DNA of 64,000 bases, from sequence record PZ386976.1, one strand, 5' to 3'. Within the stretch, counting starts at the first letter, position 1. Each line of letters starts with the position of its first letter. Below are positions 56,561 to 60,537 of this stretch, piece by piece. Position numbers and translations under genes: made by a program. Source of the DNA: a phage. Under the pieces are notes generated by a model, which worked only from the letters and a program-made list of their open reading frames with translations, did not search any database and was not told the origin of the DNA.

Positions 56561-56641
56561 TTTTAAAAGGTGTTGACAGACTCTACAAAGTTGCTCTAAA
56601 GTCTGTCACATCAAACAACAAATGAGAGAAGAGAGTAAAAT

Positions 56642-58057
56642 ATGAGCGAGTTATTTAAACATGCGCACCTTCATGCAGGTCGAACTGAAAATGGTGCTGT
56701 AAACCATACTTCATCAATGTCTGCTCTGGTAGACTTCTACAAAGCCGCTGGCTCAAGCCGTAGCAATGTAGAAATCTTACCAGACCTGTTCTACAAAGCT
56801 TTGCGTGAGGATGTTGATGTTGCAGTTCGTATTTTACTGCATATGCGAGATGTGCGAGAAGGTATGGGTGAGCGTAAAGCTTTCCGAACTGTTTTACTTC
56901 AAGCAATTGAAGACAAAGTTTTAGAGCCTACACAGGTTCTTCGCATTATGGATAAGATTGCAGAACTTGGTCGTTTTGATGACTTCAAAATCTTCGTAGG
57001 TACTCGTTTTGAGACAGATGCCTTCAAACATTTAGAAGCAGCATTACTAGACCCTGCAACAGCAGGTTTAGCAGCTAAGTGGTTACCACGAGTAAAACCA
57101 CGCCACAAACAGTTTGTAAAACGTTTCTGCAAGTTTGCAAACTTAAGTGAGAAGGAGTATCGCACACTGTTGTCTGCACTATCTGATACGGTTGAGCAAA
57201 AAATCTCTGCTAATGAGTTTGGTAAGATTGACTACAGCAAGATTCCTTCACTCGCTGCTGCACGTTACCAAAAACTCTTTAACCGTAAAGATGGAGAACG
57301 TTACAAAGCTTACATCGAATCACTCTCAAAGGGTGAGGCTAAGATTAACGCTGGTGCTGTTTACCCATACGATGTGATTAAGTCTATCAAGCATGGTAAT
57401 GCAGATGTTGCCAATGAGCAGTGGAAAGCACTACCAAACTGGATGGCAGAAGGTGAGAACATTCTGTGTATGACCGATGTTTCAAGCTCAATGTCTTGGG
57501 TGAATCTTGGTTCAATCACTGCCCTTGATATTGGTGTATCACTTGCCTTGTATGTAGCAGAACGCAATACTGGTTGTTTTAAGAATGAGTTAATGGTTTA
57601 CTCAACAAACCCTCACTTCATCGAACTGAGTGGTGATTTACGAAACCGTCATCGTCAGGTGATGCGTCATGTTGAATATGGCTCAACTAACTTACAAGCA
57701 GCTTTTGACCGTATTCTTGAGATAGGTAAAAGAAACAACTTGACTCAGAAAGATATGCCAAGTAAGCTTATCATCTTCTCCGATATGGAGTTCAATCAGG
57801 TTGATGGTGCTAACGGTCGTACAAACTTTGAAGCAATTCAGAGTAAGTACAAAAAAGCTGGATATGAGATGCCACAACTGGTATTCTGGTACTTAGCAAA
57901 CCGTAATGGCACTTGCGAAGTATCTGTTAAGGATAACGGTGTAGCAATGGTATCTGGTTTCTCTCCAGCCACTTTAAAAGCTCTGCTTGGTGGTGAGAAG
58001 TTTGACCCAATCAGCGTAATGCTCAAAGCAGTAATGATTGACCGTTATATCTGGTAA
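56642..58057 (+). CDS. vWA-domain protein with Ro60-like features (N-terminal helical domain + C-terminal vWA with MIDAS)
   Basis: MIDAS-like DVSSSM followed by LGSI..., G-S-T-N and FSDMEF elements in order expected of Ro60 vWA domain; N-terminal ~300 aa helical; a DUF2828-type assignment cannot be excluded. Confidence 0.5.
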   Translation: MSELFKHAHLHAGRTENGAVNHTSSMSALVDFYKAAGSSRSNVEILPDLFYKALREDVDVAVRILLHMRDVREGMGERKAFRTVLLQAIEDKVLEPTQVLRIMDKIAELGRFDDFKIFVGTRFETDAFKHLEAALLDPATAGLAAKWLPRVKPRHKQFVKRFCKFANLSEKEYRTLLSALSDTVEQKISANEFGKIDYSKIPSLAAARYQKLFNRKDGERYKAYIESLSKGEAKINAGAVYPYDVIKSIKHGNADVANEQWKALPNWMAEGENILCMTDVSSSMSWVNLGSITALDIGVSLALYVAERNTGCFKNELMVYSTNPHFIELSGDLRNRHRQVMRHVEYGSTNLQAAFDRILEIGKRNNLTQKDMPSKLIIFSDMEFNQVDGANGRTNFEAIQSKYKKAGYEMPQLVFWYLANRNGTCEVSVKDNGVAMVSGFSPATLKALLGGEKFDPISVMLKAVMIDRYIW

Positions 58058-58075: not shown

Positions 58076-58104
58076 TTGACAATGTGTTTGATACCCTTTA
58101 ATAT
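58076..58104 (+). promoter_or_regulatory. sigma70-like promoter upstream of tRNA cluster
   Basis: TTGACA, 17 nt, TAATAT. Confidence 0.5.
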
Positions 58105-58166: not shown

Positions 58167-58196
58167 TTGACAACCACTAAAAAATAATGTTAAAGT
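58167..58196 (+). promoter_or_regulatory. second sigma70-like promoter upstream of tRNA cluster
   Basis: TTGACA, 17-18 nt, TAAAGT. Confidence 0.4.
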
Positions 58197-58316: not shown

Positions 58317-58673
58317 ATGAGATTTTTAAAAGAATGTCCAGTTCATGGTTTAACTGAACATAGCATTCATAAGAATGGTAACGCCGGTAATAGAGTAAAT
58401 TGTCTAAAATGTTGTGCATTAAGGACAAAACTTAGAGAGGATGCCAATAGGGAGAAAGCATACAAGTTTTATGGCGATAGTTGCAAAATTTGTGGCTATA
58501 ATAAATGTAAAAATGCTTTAGAATGGCATCACCTTAACCCAAACGAAAAAGAGAATACACCATCAAAAATTATGGGTGCATCTTGGGAAAAGGTTAAAAA
58601 AGAACTTGATAAATGTGTTTTGCTCTGTGCTAATTGCCACAGAGAGGTTCATAGTGGAATTACAACGGTTTAA
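58317..58673 (+). CDS. HNH homing endonuclease within tRNA cluster
   Basis: Cys-rich zinc-binding elements and HNH motif EWHHLNP...LLCANCHREVH; ORF 58239.. trimmed to MRFLKE because upstream part overlaps tRNA-Pro. Confidence 0.6.
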   Translation: MRFLKECPVHGLTEHSIHKNGNAGNRVNCLKCCALRTKLREDANREKAYKFYGDSCKICGYNKCKNALEWHHLNPNEKENTPSKIMGASWEKVKKELDKCVLLCANCHREVHSGITTV

Positions 58674-58674
58674 T

Positions 58675-58749
58675 GTCGTAGAAGGCAAATGGTTAGCCAC
58701 CTGACCTTCAATCAGTTGCTCGCAGGTTCGAATCCTGTCTACGACACCA
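58675..58749 (+). tRNA. tRNA, anticodon tentative (TTC, Glu?)
   Basis: acceptor gtcgtag/ctacgac, T-arm gcagg-ttcgaat-cctgt, CCA encoded; anticodon loop ccTTCaa has atypical C33. Confidence 0.45.
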
Positions 58750-58753
58750 GTTT

Positions 58754-58832
58754 TGACAGAAGACCAATTACAGCAAACTTAATCTTATTCATCTGAAGGT
58801 AAATCGGACAAAGAAGAGATTTGGTCTGGTCA
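58754..58832 (+). ncRNA. conserved bulged-helix module 1 (outer stem tgac/gtca, 5' AGA bulge, inner stem agaccaa/ttggtct, 3' G bulge)
   Basis: one of four copies with covarying outer stems; encloses AT-rich loop. Confidence 0.35.
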
Positions 58833-58840
58833 TTAAGAAT

Positions 58841-58917
58841 TGCGGGTATAGAGAAAGGGCGTCTCACATGTCTCATTAGCATGGTATCGGCAGGTTCGAC
58901 TCCTGCACCCGCCTCCA
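58841..58917 (+). tRNA. tRNA-Met/Ile2 (anticodon CAT), initiator-like unpaired 1:72
   Basis: acceptor (t)gcgggt/acccgc(c), anticodon loop ctCATta, T-arm gcagg-ttcgact-cctgc, CCA encoded. Confidence 0.5.
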
Positions 58918-58920
58918 ATT

Positions 58921-58986
58921 TTGCAGAAGACCGTATTCAGCAACAAACTACTTTTTGCGGATAAAAGAAAAAACACGGTCTGGCAA
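58921..58986 (+). ncRNA. conserved bulged-helix module 2 (outer ttgc/gcaa, inner agaccgt/acggtct)
   Basis: same architecture as module 1 with compensatory base changes. Confidence 0.35.
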
Positions 58987-58994
58987 TGTATTAA

Positions 58995-59071
58995 GGTTAG
59001 GAAGCACATAAGGTATGTGCGGTCGCCTGTTAAGCGAATGGCACAGGGTTCGAATCCCTGACTAACCGCCA
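58995..59071 (+). tRNA. tRNA-Asn: tRNA-Asn (anticodon GTT)
   Basis: acceptor ggttagg/actaacc, D-arm gcac-ataaggtat-gtgc, anticodon arm gtcgc-ctGTTaa-gcgaa, T-arm caggg-ttcgaat-ccctg, CCA. Confidence 0.7.
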
Positions 59072-59140
59072 AATTTAGGAGAGAAGCGATTGCTCACCGA
59101 TTTGTAAGGTGCAAGTCCTTAGCCTGAATAGAAATTAAAT

Positions 59141-59228
59141 GTGTCGTTATCCCGTAGATGGTAGCGGTGGGGACTGTAAATCCCTTGTCATTGAGACTCG
59201 GTAGGTTCGACTCCTACACGGCACACCA
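59141..59228 (+). tRNA. tRNA-Tyr: tRNA-Tyr (anticodon GTA), long variable arm
   Basis: acceptor gtgtcgt/acggcac, anticodon arm gggga-ctGTAaa-tccct, long variable arm, T-arm gtagg-ttcgact-cctac, CCA. Confidence 0.65.
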
Positions 59229-59233
59229 ATAAA

Positions 59234-59311
59234 GGTTATGTAGTTTAATTTGGTTAAAATACTCCCCTGTCACGGGAGATGATGAGGGTTCAAATCCCTT
59301 CGTAACCGCCA
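59234..59311 (+). tRNA. tRNA-Asp: tRNA-Asp (anticodon GTC)
   Basis: acceptor ggttatg/cgtaacc, anticodon arm ctccc-ctGTCac-gggag, T-arm gaggg-ttcaaat-ccctt, CCA. Confidence 0.7.
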
Positions 59312-59369
59312 ATTTTGAGAGGGCTATTTAGCCCCTCCCTTAAAGGGTTCTTACGAGTATCCTTTAAAG

Positions 59370-59451
59370 GAGCAGAAGACCAAATACAGCAAGAACGTAT
59401 GAAAATTTCAAGCCAATTTAATTTTGAAAAATTTAAAACTTGGTCTGGCTC
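59370..59451 (+). ncRNA. conserved bulged-helix module 3 (outer gagc/gctc, inner agaccaa/ttggtct)
   Basis: same architecture, compensatory outer-stem change. Confidence 0.35.
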
Positions 59452-59458
59452 AACAAAT

Positions 59459-59595
59459 TTACAGAAGACCGTTTACAGCAAAACTTAAACAATCTATTTC
59501 TCGGTAAAGAAAAGGCGAAGGTTCGATTCCTTCACTCGGCAGATGTCGAGTTGGTGTAATGGTAGCACTTAAGATGATAAACAACGGTCTGGTAA
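59459..59595 (+). ncRNA. conserved bulged-helix module 4 enclosing a circularly permuted tRNA-like domain; candidate Y-RNA-like RNA
   Basis: outer ttac/gtaa, inner agaccgt/acggtct; enclosed 59517-59568 has T-arm gaagg-ttcgatt-ccttc, 7-bp hairpin actcggc-agat-gtcgagt (acceptor-like) and D-arm-like gtg-taatggtag-cac in permuted order. Confidence 0.35.
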
Positions 59596-59736
59596 TTATC
59601 TTTGTAGATAAGTTATTAAGCTTACCTGTGAGTATGCGACCACAAAGGGTGAAAGGGTAAATTCTAGATTTAAACCCAAAAAGGCACATCGCTACAGACC
59701 TTAAGCAAGTCTGGGTAGCTTATCTACAAAGATAAT
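59595..59736 (+). ncRNA. long hairpin with perfect 18-bp stem enclosing ~106 nt
   Basis: attatctttgtagataag (59595-59612) is the exact reverse complement of cttatctacaaagataat (59719-59736); no ORF. Confidence 0.3.
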
Positions 59737-59741
59737 TTAAT

Positions 59742-59900: not shown

Positions 59901-59975
59901 TGTGGGTTAGCATAAATGGTAATGCAAACGGCTGATAACCGTTAGAAGAGGGTTCGATACCCTCACCTACAACCA
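59901..59975 (+). tRNA. tRNA-Ile: tRNA-Ile (anticodon GAT)
   Basis: acceptor tgtgggt/acctaca, D-arm gcat-aaatggta-atgc, anticodon arm aacgg-ctGATaa-ccgtt, T-arm gaggg-ttcgata-ccctc, CCA. Confidence 0.7.
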
Positions 59976-59990
59976 ATTTCAATAAAGTTG

Positions 59991-60019
59991 TTGACATTGA
60001 GATGTGACTACTTTATAGT
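59991..60019 (+). promoter_or_regulatory. sigma70-like promoter inside tRNA cluster
   Basis: TTGACA, 17 nt, TATAGT; followed by ~200 nt ORF-free region before next tRNA. Confidence 0.5.
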
Positions 60020-60222
60020 AACCTTAGTTTTCGTTGCGTAGCGTCTATTTTGCAAATTTAAAATAAATGCAAACGACAATGTTTTTCTGGCAGTAGCTTG
60101 ATAGGCTAAACACCAGTGAGGTCTTCCAATCCCTCATCAAAGAATTTGGCGTACTAGCCCACGGTATGATTAATAAGGTGGGCATCTTTAAGTGCTTTCT
60201 GAGAGAGTCTTTAAAGATTAAT

Positions 60223-60299: not shown

Positions 60300-60441
60300 A
60301 ATAGTTAGCAGATTGCTTAGACGACCTTATCGGGTCTCCGTGTAAGGAGGTGGTCTGTATCTCATGTTTTCCAGAACATGTAAATAATCTGAGAAGGGGC
60401 TTTACAGTGTTGCGAAAATACGGTAAGCTTCGAATTATAGT

Positions 60442-60524
60442 ATGGGACGATGTTAAGACTCTAAGGCATGAGCAACGGCCTCCAAAACCGTTTCAAAGGG
60501 GTTCAACTCCTCCGTCCCATGCCA
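60442..60524 (+). tRNA. tRNA-like gene with oversized D region (possible anticodon CCA, Trp?)
   Basis: acceptor atgggac/gtcccat perfect, T-arm agggg-ttcaact-cctcc, CCA; candidate anticodon loop ctCCAaa; D region ~7 nt too long. Confidence 0.35.
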
Positions 60525-60537
60525 AAGTCTTATTAGG

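Follow-up and report, generated by a model that had tools for sequence, protein, structure and literature searches.

Four elements of common architecture in a phage tRNA array

The window analysed in this work is a stretch of phage DNA of 64,000 nucleotides (nt) (record PZ386976.1), in which a gene for a 471-amino-acid protein with a predicted Ro60 fold (56642-58057, plus strand) lies directly 5' of a plus-strand array of 25 transfer RNA (tRNA) genes, plus a tRNA-Glu detected with Rfam only. Felix O1-like myoviruses (Felixounavirus), among them Salmonella phage Meda, Escherichia phage JH2 and Bas63/JohannRWettstein, match this region at 95-97% identity. Four plus-strand elements at the start of the array, 0.7-1.5 kilobases (kb) 3' of the Ro60-fold open reading frame (ORF) and thus with the same-strand adjacency of prokaryotic Y RNAs, are probably small, Y-RNA-like non-coding RNA genes. 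Copy 1 (58754-58832, 79 nt) is located between the tRNA-Glu (58675-58749, plus strand; named after Bas63, matched by Rfam at 58675-58746 with 55.4 bits and missed by ARAGORN) and tRNA-Met (58841-58917), copy 2 (58921-58986, 66 nt) between tRNA-Met and tRNA-Asn (58995-59071), and copy 3 (59370-59451, 82 nt) 3' of tRNA-Asp (59234-59311). These are short forms; copy 4 (59459-59595, 137 nt) is a long form in which the helix closes a permuted tRNA-like domain.

All four copies consist of a 4-base-pair (bp) outer stem, a 5' AGA bulge, a 7-bp inner stem and a 3' G bulge (tgac-AGA-agaccaa pairing with ttggtct-G-gtca in copy 1, ttgc-AGA-agaccgt with acggtct-G-gcaa in copy 2, gagc-AGA-agaccaa with ttggtct-G-gctc in copy 3 and ttac-AGA-agaccgt with acggtct-G-gtaa in copy 4). 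The outer stem is closed by an invariant C-G pair, and an invariant, single-stranded CAGCAA follows exactly 3 nt past the 5' strand of the inner stem in each copy, the 5' strands reading N4-AGA-AGACC(R)(W)-N3-CAGCAA. Conserved nucleotides flank the helix as AG..., CAGCAA and ...CU-G. The degenerate pattern AGAAGACCNNNNNCAGCAA has exactly four matches in the window, without mismatch and all at these elements, and the 3' partner GGTCTGG is present downstream of each. In each copy the bulged helix forms in the minimum free energy (MFE) fold, and, as in Y RNAs, the 5' and 3' ends pair in a terminal stem that bears the conserved site. The elements are four paralogues of one architecture. A reading of the letters alone, referred to below as the sequence-only reading, had described this architecture correctly at every coordinate; it had missed the N3-CAGCAA motif, the invariant C-G closing pair and the tRNA-like interior of copy 4.

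Conservation of the bulged helix

The sequence-only reading had argued for selection on structure from outer stems that differ in sequence and stay complementary. In an alignment of 48 short forms, changes on both sides were found at 11 of 11 pairs of the two stems, the count for the inner stem being partly circular in that pairing was a selection criterion for the elements, and the covariation score was 0.81, compared with 0.22 for shuffles and 0.08-0.15 for slid partners. Selection by pairing touched neither the outer stem, the anchor test nor the model searches. Of 57 unique Ounavirinae-type elements, 43 had a fully paired outer stem; none of 171 slid controls did. In the anchor test, 65% of sites defined by the 5' motif only were followed by a perfect 7-bp partner and then G or A, whereas scrambled 7-mers gave 10% and the minus strand 8%. 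Elements were collected with a strict scanner, the anchor test and a covariance model; a looser pattern scanner gave many chance matches.

The covariance model, R1, was built from 48 short-form relatives, with copy 4 outside the training set, and was run without filters over the whole window on both strands. Stem-only 'mini' sequences were considered as another basis for a model and set aside, since they would penalise long insertions too heavily. The R1 search recovered only the four copies (E 3.9e-12 to 1.8e-7, next best E 0.83), with 59.8 bits for copy 1 (E 3.7e-11), 56.2 bits for copy 2 (E 2.4e-10), 64 bits for copy 3 (E 3.9e-12) and 43.7 bits for the untrained copy 4 (E 1.8e-7), all E-values being rough given that the model is home-built.

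Compensatory changes were also apparent among relatives. All four copies are kept in 27 IMG/VR relatives in which the protein is 84-100% identical; among these, the outer stem of copy 2 is TTGC/GCAA in some and TTAC/GTAA in others, and G.U intermediates that keep the pairing are seen in copies 1 and 3. The same layout is present in more distant Ounavirinae-like phages (protein 47-63% identical), where the bulge is A-N-A and the stems differ greatly in sequence; inner stems include AGTATCT/TGATACT, AGTGTCT/AGACACT, AGCTTCT/TGAAGCT and GGACTGT/ACAGTCC, and outer stems include GAAC/GTTC and TTGT/ACAA. The 3' bulge nucleotide is G in Ounavirinae-like phages and A in a Yersinia phage. G.U is tolerated in the stems far above A.C (14 versus 1). 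Together, these comparisons confirm that the elements are under selection for structure.

The tRNA-like domain of copy 4

Within the fold of copy 4, a V hairpin (59497-59512), a T arm GAAGG-TTCGATT-CCTTC (59517-59533), a closed acceptor-like stem-loop (59534-59551) and a D arm GTGT-AATGGTA-GCAC (59554-59568) follow one another on the plus strand. The T loop is GGTTCGATTCC, and the D arm contains equivalents of A14 and G18G19. An alignment of 17 long forms from Felixounavirus-like, other Ounavirinae-like, Cronobacter and Mycobacterium phages was folded with RNAalifold, which independently gave the closing inner helix, the T arm, the acceptor-like stem and the D arm, with compensatory changes at 18 of 23 pairs and with GGTTC.A.TCC and the D-loop GG nearly invariant. 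This succession of V hairpin, T arm, closed acceptor stem and D arm is the defining order of the tRNA-like module in the bacterial Y RNA YrlA (PMC4201824; bioRxiv 10.1101/312249) and is found in copy 4 only, the heads of copies 1-3 being simple hairpins with no tRNA-like domain. Neither ARAGORN nor the Rfam tRNA model (RF00005) calls a tRNA in any of the four copies; the match of copy 4 to the latter is truncated, at 16 bits, and its acceptor-like stem is closed by a loop. Copy 4 is a circularly permuted tRNA mimic of YrlA topology.

The neighbouring gene encodes a protein with a predicted Ro60 fold

The protein encoded at 56642-58057 is the orthologue of Bas63 gp130, which has been reported as countering the Ppl defence system. 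Pfam recognised DUF2828, DUF7788 and a weak VWA_2 domain only, and a phmmer search against PDB sequences returned no Ro60. The structure was modelled with AlphaFold2 (mean predicted local distance difference test score 86.4, predicted template modelling (TM) score 0.87), and in a Foldseek comparison with the PDB the best 11 matches were all Ro60, over the full length, with E 6e-8 to 3e-5 and TM scores of 0.53-0.65. The predicted structure has both the HEAT-repeat ring and the vWA fold of Ro60. Given the empty PDB sequence search, the likeness to Ro60 is revealed by fold comparison only. Homologues of the protein were found in 710 INPHARED records at E <= 1e-5 and in thousands of metagenomic sequences, and annotations of the family go no further than 'RNA-binding protein' or DUF2828. 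The protein is presumed to be the partner of the Y-like RNAs.

Occurrence beside DUF2828 genes in other phages

In other phages a core was found that consists of a 7-bp helix of variable sequence, N3-C(A/C)GCAA, and a 3' strand followed by G, on the strand of the gene. This core lies beside the DUF2828 gene in Felixounavirus-like phages, a Yersinia phage, Listeria phage LP-064, Campylobacter phage F365, the N4-like Vibrio phage PhiImVa-1 and Cronobacter phage S13. Three elements occupy a 370-nt gap past a gene annotated 'Ro-like RNA binding protein' in Mycobacterium phages Kingsolomon and LilDestine, and the R1 search found further elements beside the DUF2828 gene in Staphylococcus, Bacillus, Enterococcus and Ralstonia phages. 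The hosts of phages with the core span Proteobacteria, Firmicutes, Actinobacteria and Campylobacter. Only Ounavirinae-type phages have the outer stem and the 3-nt bulge; elsewhere the outer positions pair at chance level.

For a systematic test, 65 independent IMG/VR loci with homologues 39-47% identical were searched with R1 at a cut-off of E <= 0.1. There were 38 matches in 33 loci, all 38 on the gene strand and 34 of them within ~500 nt of the gene; in a further set of model matches, all 53 of 53 shared the strand of the gene. The window has a syntenic counterpart in Erwinia phage phiEa21-4 (endolysin ... DUF5681 gene, tRNA array, DUF7217 gene, terminase), where no Ro60-like (DUF2828) gene occupies this position. 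The array of 26 tRNA genes in phiEa21-4 contained no R1 match better than E 1.8. That an array without the gene is also without the elements argues against their being generic tRNA spacers. Both position and strand link the RNA family to DUF2828 Ro60-fold genes in many unrelated phages. A second tblastn search, at E <= 10, yielded nothing more.

Several side observations were made on the heads and surroundings of these elements. The apical hairpin of copy 2 (58950-58968), cuuuu-UGCGGAU-aaaag, has a near-identical counterpart, cuguu-UGCGGAU-aacaag, in an element of Mycobacterium phage LilDestine (L042 5441-5502), and the motif (G/U)CGGA also occurs in copy 1 and in the orthologues of copy 2; a UGCGGAU-type apical loop may be a conserved effector-binding loop. 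Hairpins of anticodon-loop form, with 5 bp and a 7-nt loop, are present in several forms, short and long, of other phages (CUGCUAA twice, CUGUUAA, CUUUUAA, CUCAUAA and CUUCUAA, at L035 5657-5724, L041 3469-3539 and 3903-3969, L048 9288-9359, L049 7990-8118 and L028 3520-3616). They occur in 18 of 117 unique elements, compared with 2.5 in shuffles, about half of them being T arms. Anticodon-loop mimicry by the heads of the window copies was checked and is unsupported: such loops are seen in some relatives only, and none of the four copies has a clear one.

Oversized 'tRNAs' of 113-121 nt adjoin the DUF2828 gene in Cronobacter phage S13 (L037 5896-6016 and 6026-6138) and Vibrio phage PhiImVa-1 (L041 3716-3830). 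They are annotated as tRNA-Ser, tRNA-OTHER and suppressor. Their acceptor stem with CCA, D arm and T arm are normal, and an insert with the helix-N3-CAGCA(A/C) arrangement of the family replaces the anticodon region. They may be chimeras of a tRNA body and the docking module. In Listeria phage LP-064, a sub-threshold match to the ROOL RNA (L040 2429-2980, 87.4 bits with a gathering score of 99.1, E 2.6e-16) lies ~1 kb 5' of the DUF2828 gene and three Y-like RNAs, and a gene for an RtcB-like RNA ligase lies ~1.3 kb 3' (L040 6813-8024), a neighbourhood that echoes the bacterial rsr-yrlBA-rtcBA arrangement. In Yersinia phage vB_YenM_P778 (L033 6590-6830), the first element stands between its own promoter-like TTGACG-17-TAAAGT and the promoter of the tRNA array, so that some relatives may transcribe at least one element independently.

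Comparison with known Y RNAs

There is a close resemblance to bacterial YrlA and YrlB (RF02553; Chen et al. 2013/2014, PMC4201824; bioRxiv 10.1101/312249). In both cases several small RNAs are encoded beside a Ro60-type gene, the RNAs are modular, with a stem formed by the 5' and 3' ends and a second module, and one member per locus has the permuted V-T-acceptor-D domain that its shorter companions, like YrlB, do not have. The phage elements differ in the sequence and shape of the closing module, where N3-CAGCAA, a helix of 7 bp and a 3' G, joined in the window by a further 4-bp stem and its AGA bulge, stand instead of GNCGAA; in their partner, which is DUF2828 by sequence and not TROVE; and in the location of the genes inside a tRNA array. 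The gathering score of the Rfam YrlA model, 69 bits, was not reached; an element of phage Kingsolomon scored a sub-threshold 37.9 bits against it, over the tRNA-like part only and with the terminal helix misaligned. By architecture and genomic partnership, the set in the window is one YrlA-like long form with YrlB-like short companions.

In metazoan Y RNAs (RF00019), too, a terminal bulged helix of the RNA ends closes a variable domain, and several paralogues are present per genome. There the helix is the conserved Ro60-binding site, whereas in the phage elements binding is predicted. The two have no sequence similarity, GGUCCGA being absent here, and the arrangement of bulges differs. Metazoan Y RNAs are made by RNA polymerase III; the phage elements would use bacterial-type transcription and tRNA-linked processing. 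A search of the four elements with Rfam, at gathering thresholds and at E <= 10, gave only chance-level matches to Dicty_Class_I_RNA.

A phage precedent is provided by Thermus phage phiLo, whose Ro60 bound two adjacent Y-like RNAs (Yrl1/Yrl2) and host PNPase in vitro (PMC12135203). As in the window, a phage Ro60-fold protein (9kop/9l5y, a fold match to the window protein) is encoded adjacent to Y-like RNAs, two in that case. The phiLo Ro60 was, however, identified as a homologue and its RNAs were picked by a CGAA motif (PMC12135203), whereas the family described here has CAGCAA and another helix, reaches four or more copies and includes a tRNA-like member. Neither Rfam nor the literature searched (DUF2828, Felixounavirus non-coding RNA, phage Ro-like/TROVE with tRNA clusters) yielded a description of the RNAs in this family, although long-form mycobacteriophage members may already be listed as YrlA in the supplementary phage table of Chen et al. 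2014. The resemblance to Y RNAs is one of architecture and partnership, not of family membership.

Small stable non-tRNA RNAs within a phage tRNA cluster have a parallel in species 1 and 2 RNAs of phage T4, which are transcribed and processed within such a cluster. To our knowledge, no Ro60-like partner has been described for T4.

Interpretation and alternatives

Two strong sigma-70-like promoters before tRNA-Pro (58076-58104 and 58167-58196, plus strand) probably drive the array of tRNAs and Y-like RNAs. The promoter scan found no site between the elements, there is no clear plus-strand terminator inside the tRNA array, and the elements are tightly spaced, with 5' ends 3-4 nt past the upstream tRNA and 3' ends 8 nt short of the next. 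From this arrangement, the elements would be co-transcribed with the tRNAs from the promoters at ~58076 and ~58167 and freed when the nucleases of tRNA processing cut the flanking tRNAs. The constant module of helix, CAGCAA and 3' G would then act as docking site for the Ro60-like ring, and the variable heads, hairpins in copies 1-3 and the tRNA mimic in copy 4, would engage other factors, by recruiting or occupying them, in the manner of Y RNA effector modules. In Deinococcus, for example, a Y RNA tethers Ro60 to PNPase. The resulting ribonucleoproteins (RNPs) may serve the quality control of RNA or tRNA, or oppose host defences. The proposed docking module is distinct and is co-distributed with a distinct Ro60-fold family in phages of at least three bacterial phyla. 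The elements are most likely the phage's own Y RNAs, as judged from sequence and genomic context, and we infer from the same evidence that the Ro60-fold protein binds them.

A number of observations weigh against this interpretation. The protein belongs by sequence to the DUF2828 family and has no TROVE match in Pfam. Neither the Y_RNA nor the YrlA model of Rfam matched the window, or copy 4 alone, at E <= 10. The canonical Ro60-binding sequences, GGUCCGA in animals and GNCGAAN0-1G in bacteria (PMC4201824), are absent from the 5' strands of the four copies; a GGCGAAG inside copy 4 belongs to the T stem and reads GGAGAAG in close relatives. Single-sequence folding z-scores of the copies are modest, at -0.75 to -2.4, and the case for the elements therefore rests on comparison and not on stability, where the circularity of the inner-stem count noted above has to be borne in mind. 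R1 found nothing in about half of the distant loci, and the large phages ValKK3 (KVP40-like) and Aeromonas Ah1 have the gene and no convincing element within 4-5 kb. Transcription, mature ends and protein binding are here predicted from sequence, and genomic linkage is not binding. The suggestion of the sequence-only reading that the helix is of the kind bound by Ro60 on Y RNAs is supported by context: the neighbour has the predicted fold, the elements are linked to it in position and strand and are absent where the gene is absent, and the canonical motif, the Rfam families and the TROVE match are those parts of the Y RNA picture that did not appear.

The RNAs could instead function independently of the Ro60-like protein, for example against host nucleases that target tRNAs, as decoys or competitive inhibitors, or in the processing or chaperoning of the array, and adjoin the gene only through a shared tRNA-related module. 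The tendency of DUF2828 genes to adjoin tRNA arrays in unrelated phages would be explained in this way, and the tRNA mimicry of copy 4, the anticodon-loop-like hairpins of some relatives and the decoy role proposed for YrlA (PMC7790460) would all be in keeping with it. It is nevertheless improbable, given that elements abut the gene outside tRNA arrays in mycobacteriophages, a Staphylococcus phage and many IMG/VR loci, and that an invariant closing helix and CAGCAA with variable heads fit a common protein dock with variable effector ends. Location outside arrays beside the gene likewise makes it very unlikely that the elements are passive spacers, or structures at which the tRNA precursor is processed (RNase III or RNase E sites, for instance), that have no existence of their own once cleaved. 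Their packing between tRNAs with gaps of 3-8 nt and no promoter of their own is what such spacers would look like, as is the restriction of the outer stem to Ounavirinae-type phages, where the elements sit inside the array; yet the syntenic phiEa21-4 array does without them, and a cleavage site needs neither a conserved single-stranded motif nor an elaborate tRNA-like domain.

Imperfect inverted repeats bound each element and copy 4 has tRNA-derived T and D arms, features that decayed tRNA genes, tRNA-derived repeats or DNA inverted repeats with no RNA function (like miniature inverted-repeat transposable elements, or protein-binding sites) would share. Such an origin is scarcely tenable. Copies 1-3 have no tRNA features and, as described above, no copy is called a tRNA; strand specificity is strict, with CAGCAA and the AGA bulge on one side only and all matches on one strand; stem substitutions are compensatory, with the preference for G.U over A.C given above; and conservation of the family extends across phyla.

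Ro60-Y RNA particles are known in animals, some bacteria and few phages, and their bacterial and viral roles are poorly understood. The Y-like RNAs described here provide concrete RNA partner candidates, with coordinates, consensus and covariance model, for a very common phage protein family. It has been guessed in print that some Bas63 'tRNAs' might be Y RNAs; on present evidence the candidates are the unannotated gaps between the tRNAs and not the annotated tRNAs, and the guess becomes directly testable in a genetically tractable E. coli phage whose protein has a phenotype. Phage tRNA arrays can hide non-tRNA RNA genes, which are missed or overlaid by spurious small ORFs (Bas63 genes 0137 and 0138). 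A bolder proposal, possible though doubtful, is that DUF2828 proteins and CAGCAA Y-like RNAs form a widespread, phage-specific RNP platform directed against host immune nucleases, with interchangeable heads (plain hairpins, hairpins like anticodon stem-loops, or whole permuted tRNA mimics) serving as decoys or tethers against tRNA-directed and other nucleases. If true, it would account for the countering of Ppl by the Bas63 orthologue, and many phage tRNA arrays would be part tRNA supply and part RNA-based anti-defence locus.

Other features of the array

The Ro60-like gene is preceded by a sigma-70-like promoter, TTGACA-18-TAAAGT (56573-56602, plus strand). An ORF for an HNH endonuclease of 118 amino acids (58317-58673, plus strand) lies between tRNA-Pro and tRNA-Glu and is missing in most relatives, where copy 1 begins at +335 nt from the protein gene as compared with +697 nt here, which suggests a mobile homing-endonuclease insertion into the tRNA array.

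Between copy 4 and tRNA-Lys, the 146 nt at 59596-59741 (plus strand) form a closing stem of ~22 bp (ttatctttgtagataag.../...cttatctacaaagataa) around three inner hairpins. The MFE is -46.4 kcal/mol (z-score -5.5, with 0 of 200 shuffles as stable), no Rfam family matched, and the equivalent in Bas63 is overlaid by small minus-strand ORFs; this is probably another non-coding RNA gene. The best promoter-like site of the region, TTGACA-17-TATAGT (59991-60019, plus strand), is followed by ~200 nt without a tRNA. This stretch (59976-60222) folds unremarkably as a single sequence (z -1.6), and weak Rfam matches to permuted transfer-messenger RNA (tmRNA_permuted, 59918-60101, 32.5 bits, E 3e-4) and to tmRNA (60033-60222) fall in and around it. 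A further unannotated gap between tRNA-Arg and tRNA-Ser (60300-60537, plus strand), with a weak tRNA-Sec-like match at 60444-60518 (23 bits, E 0.18), could be a degenerate tRNA or another small RNA.

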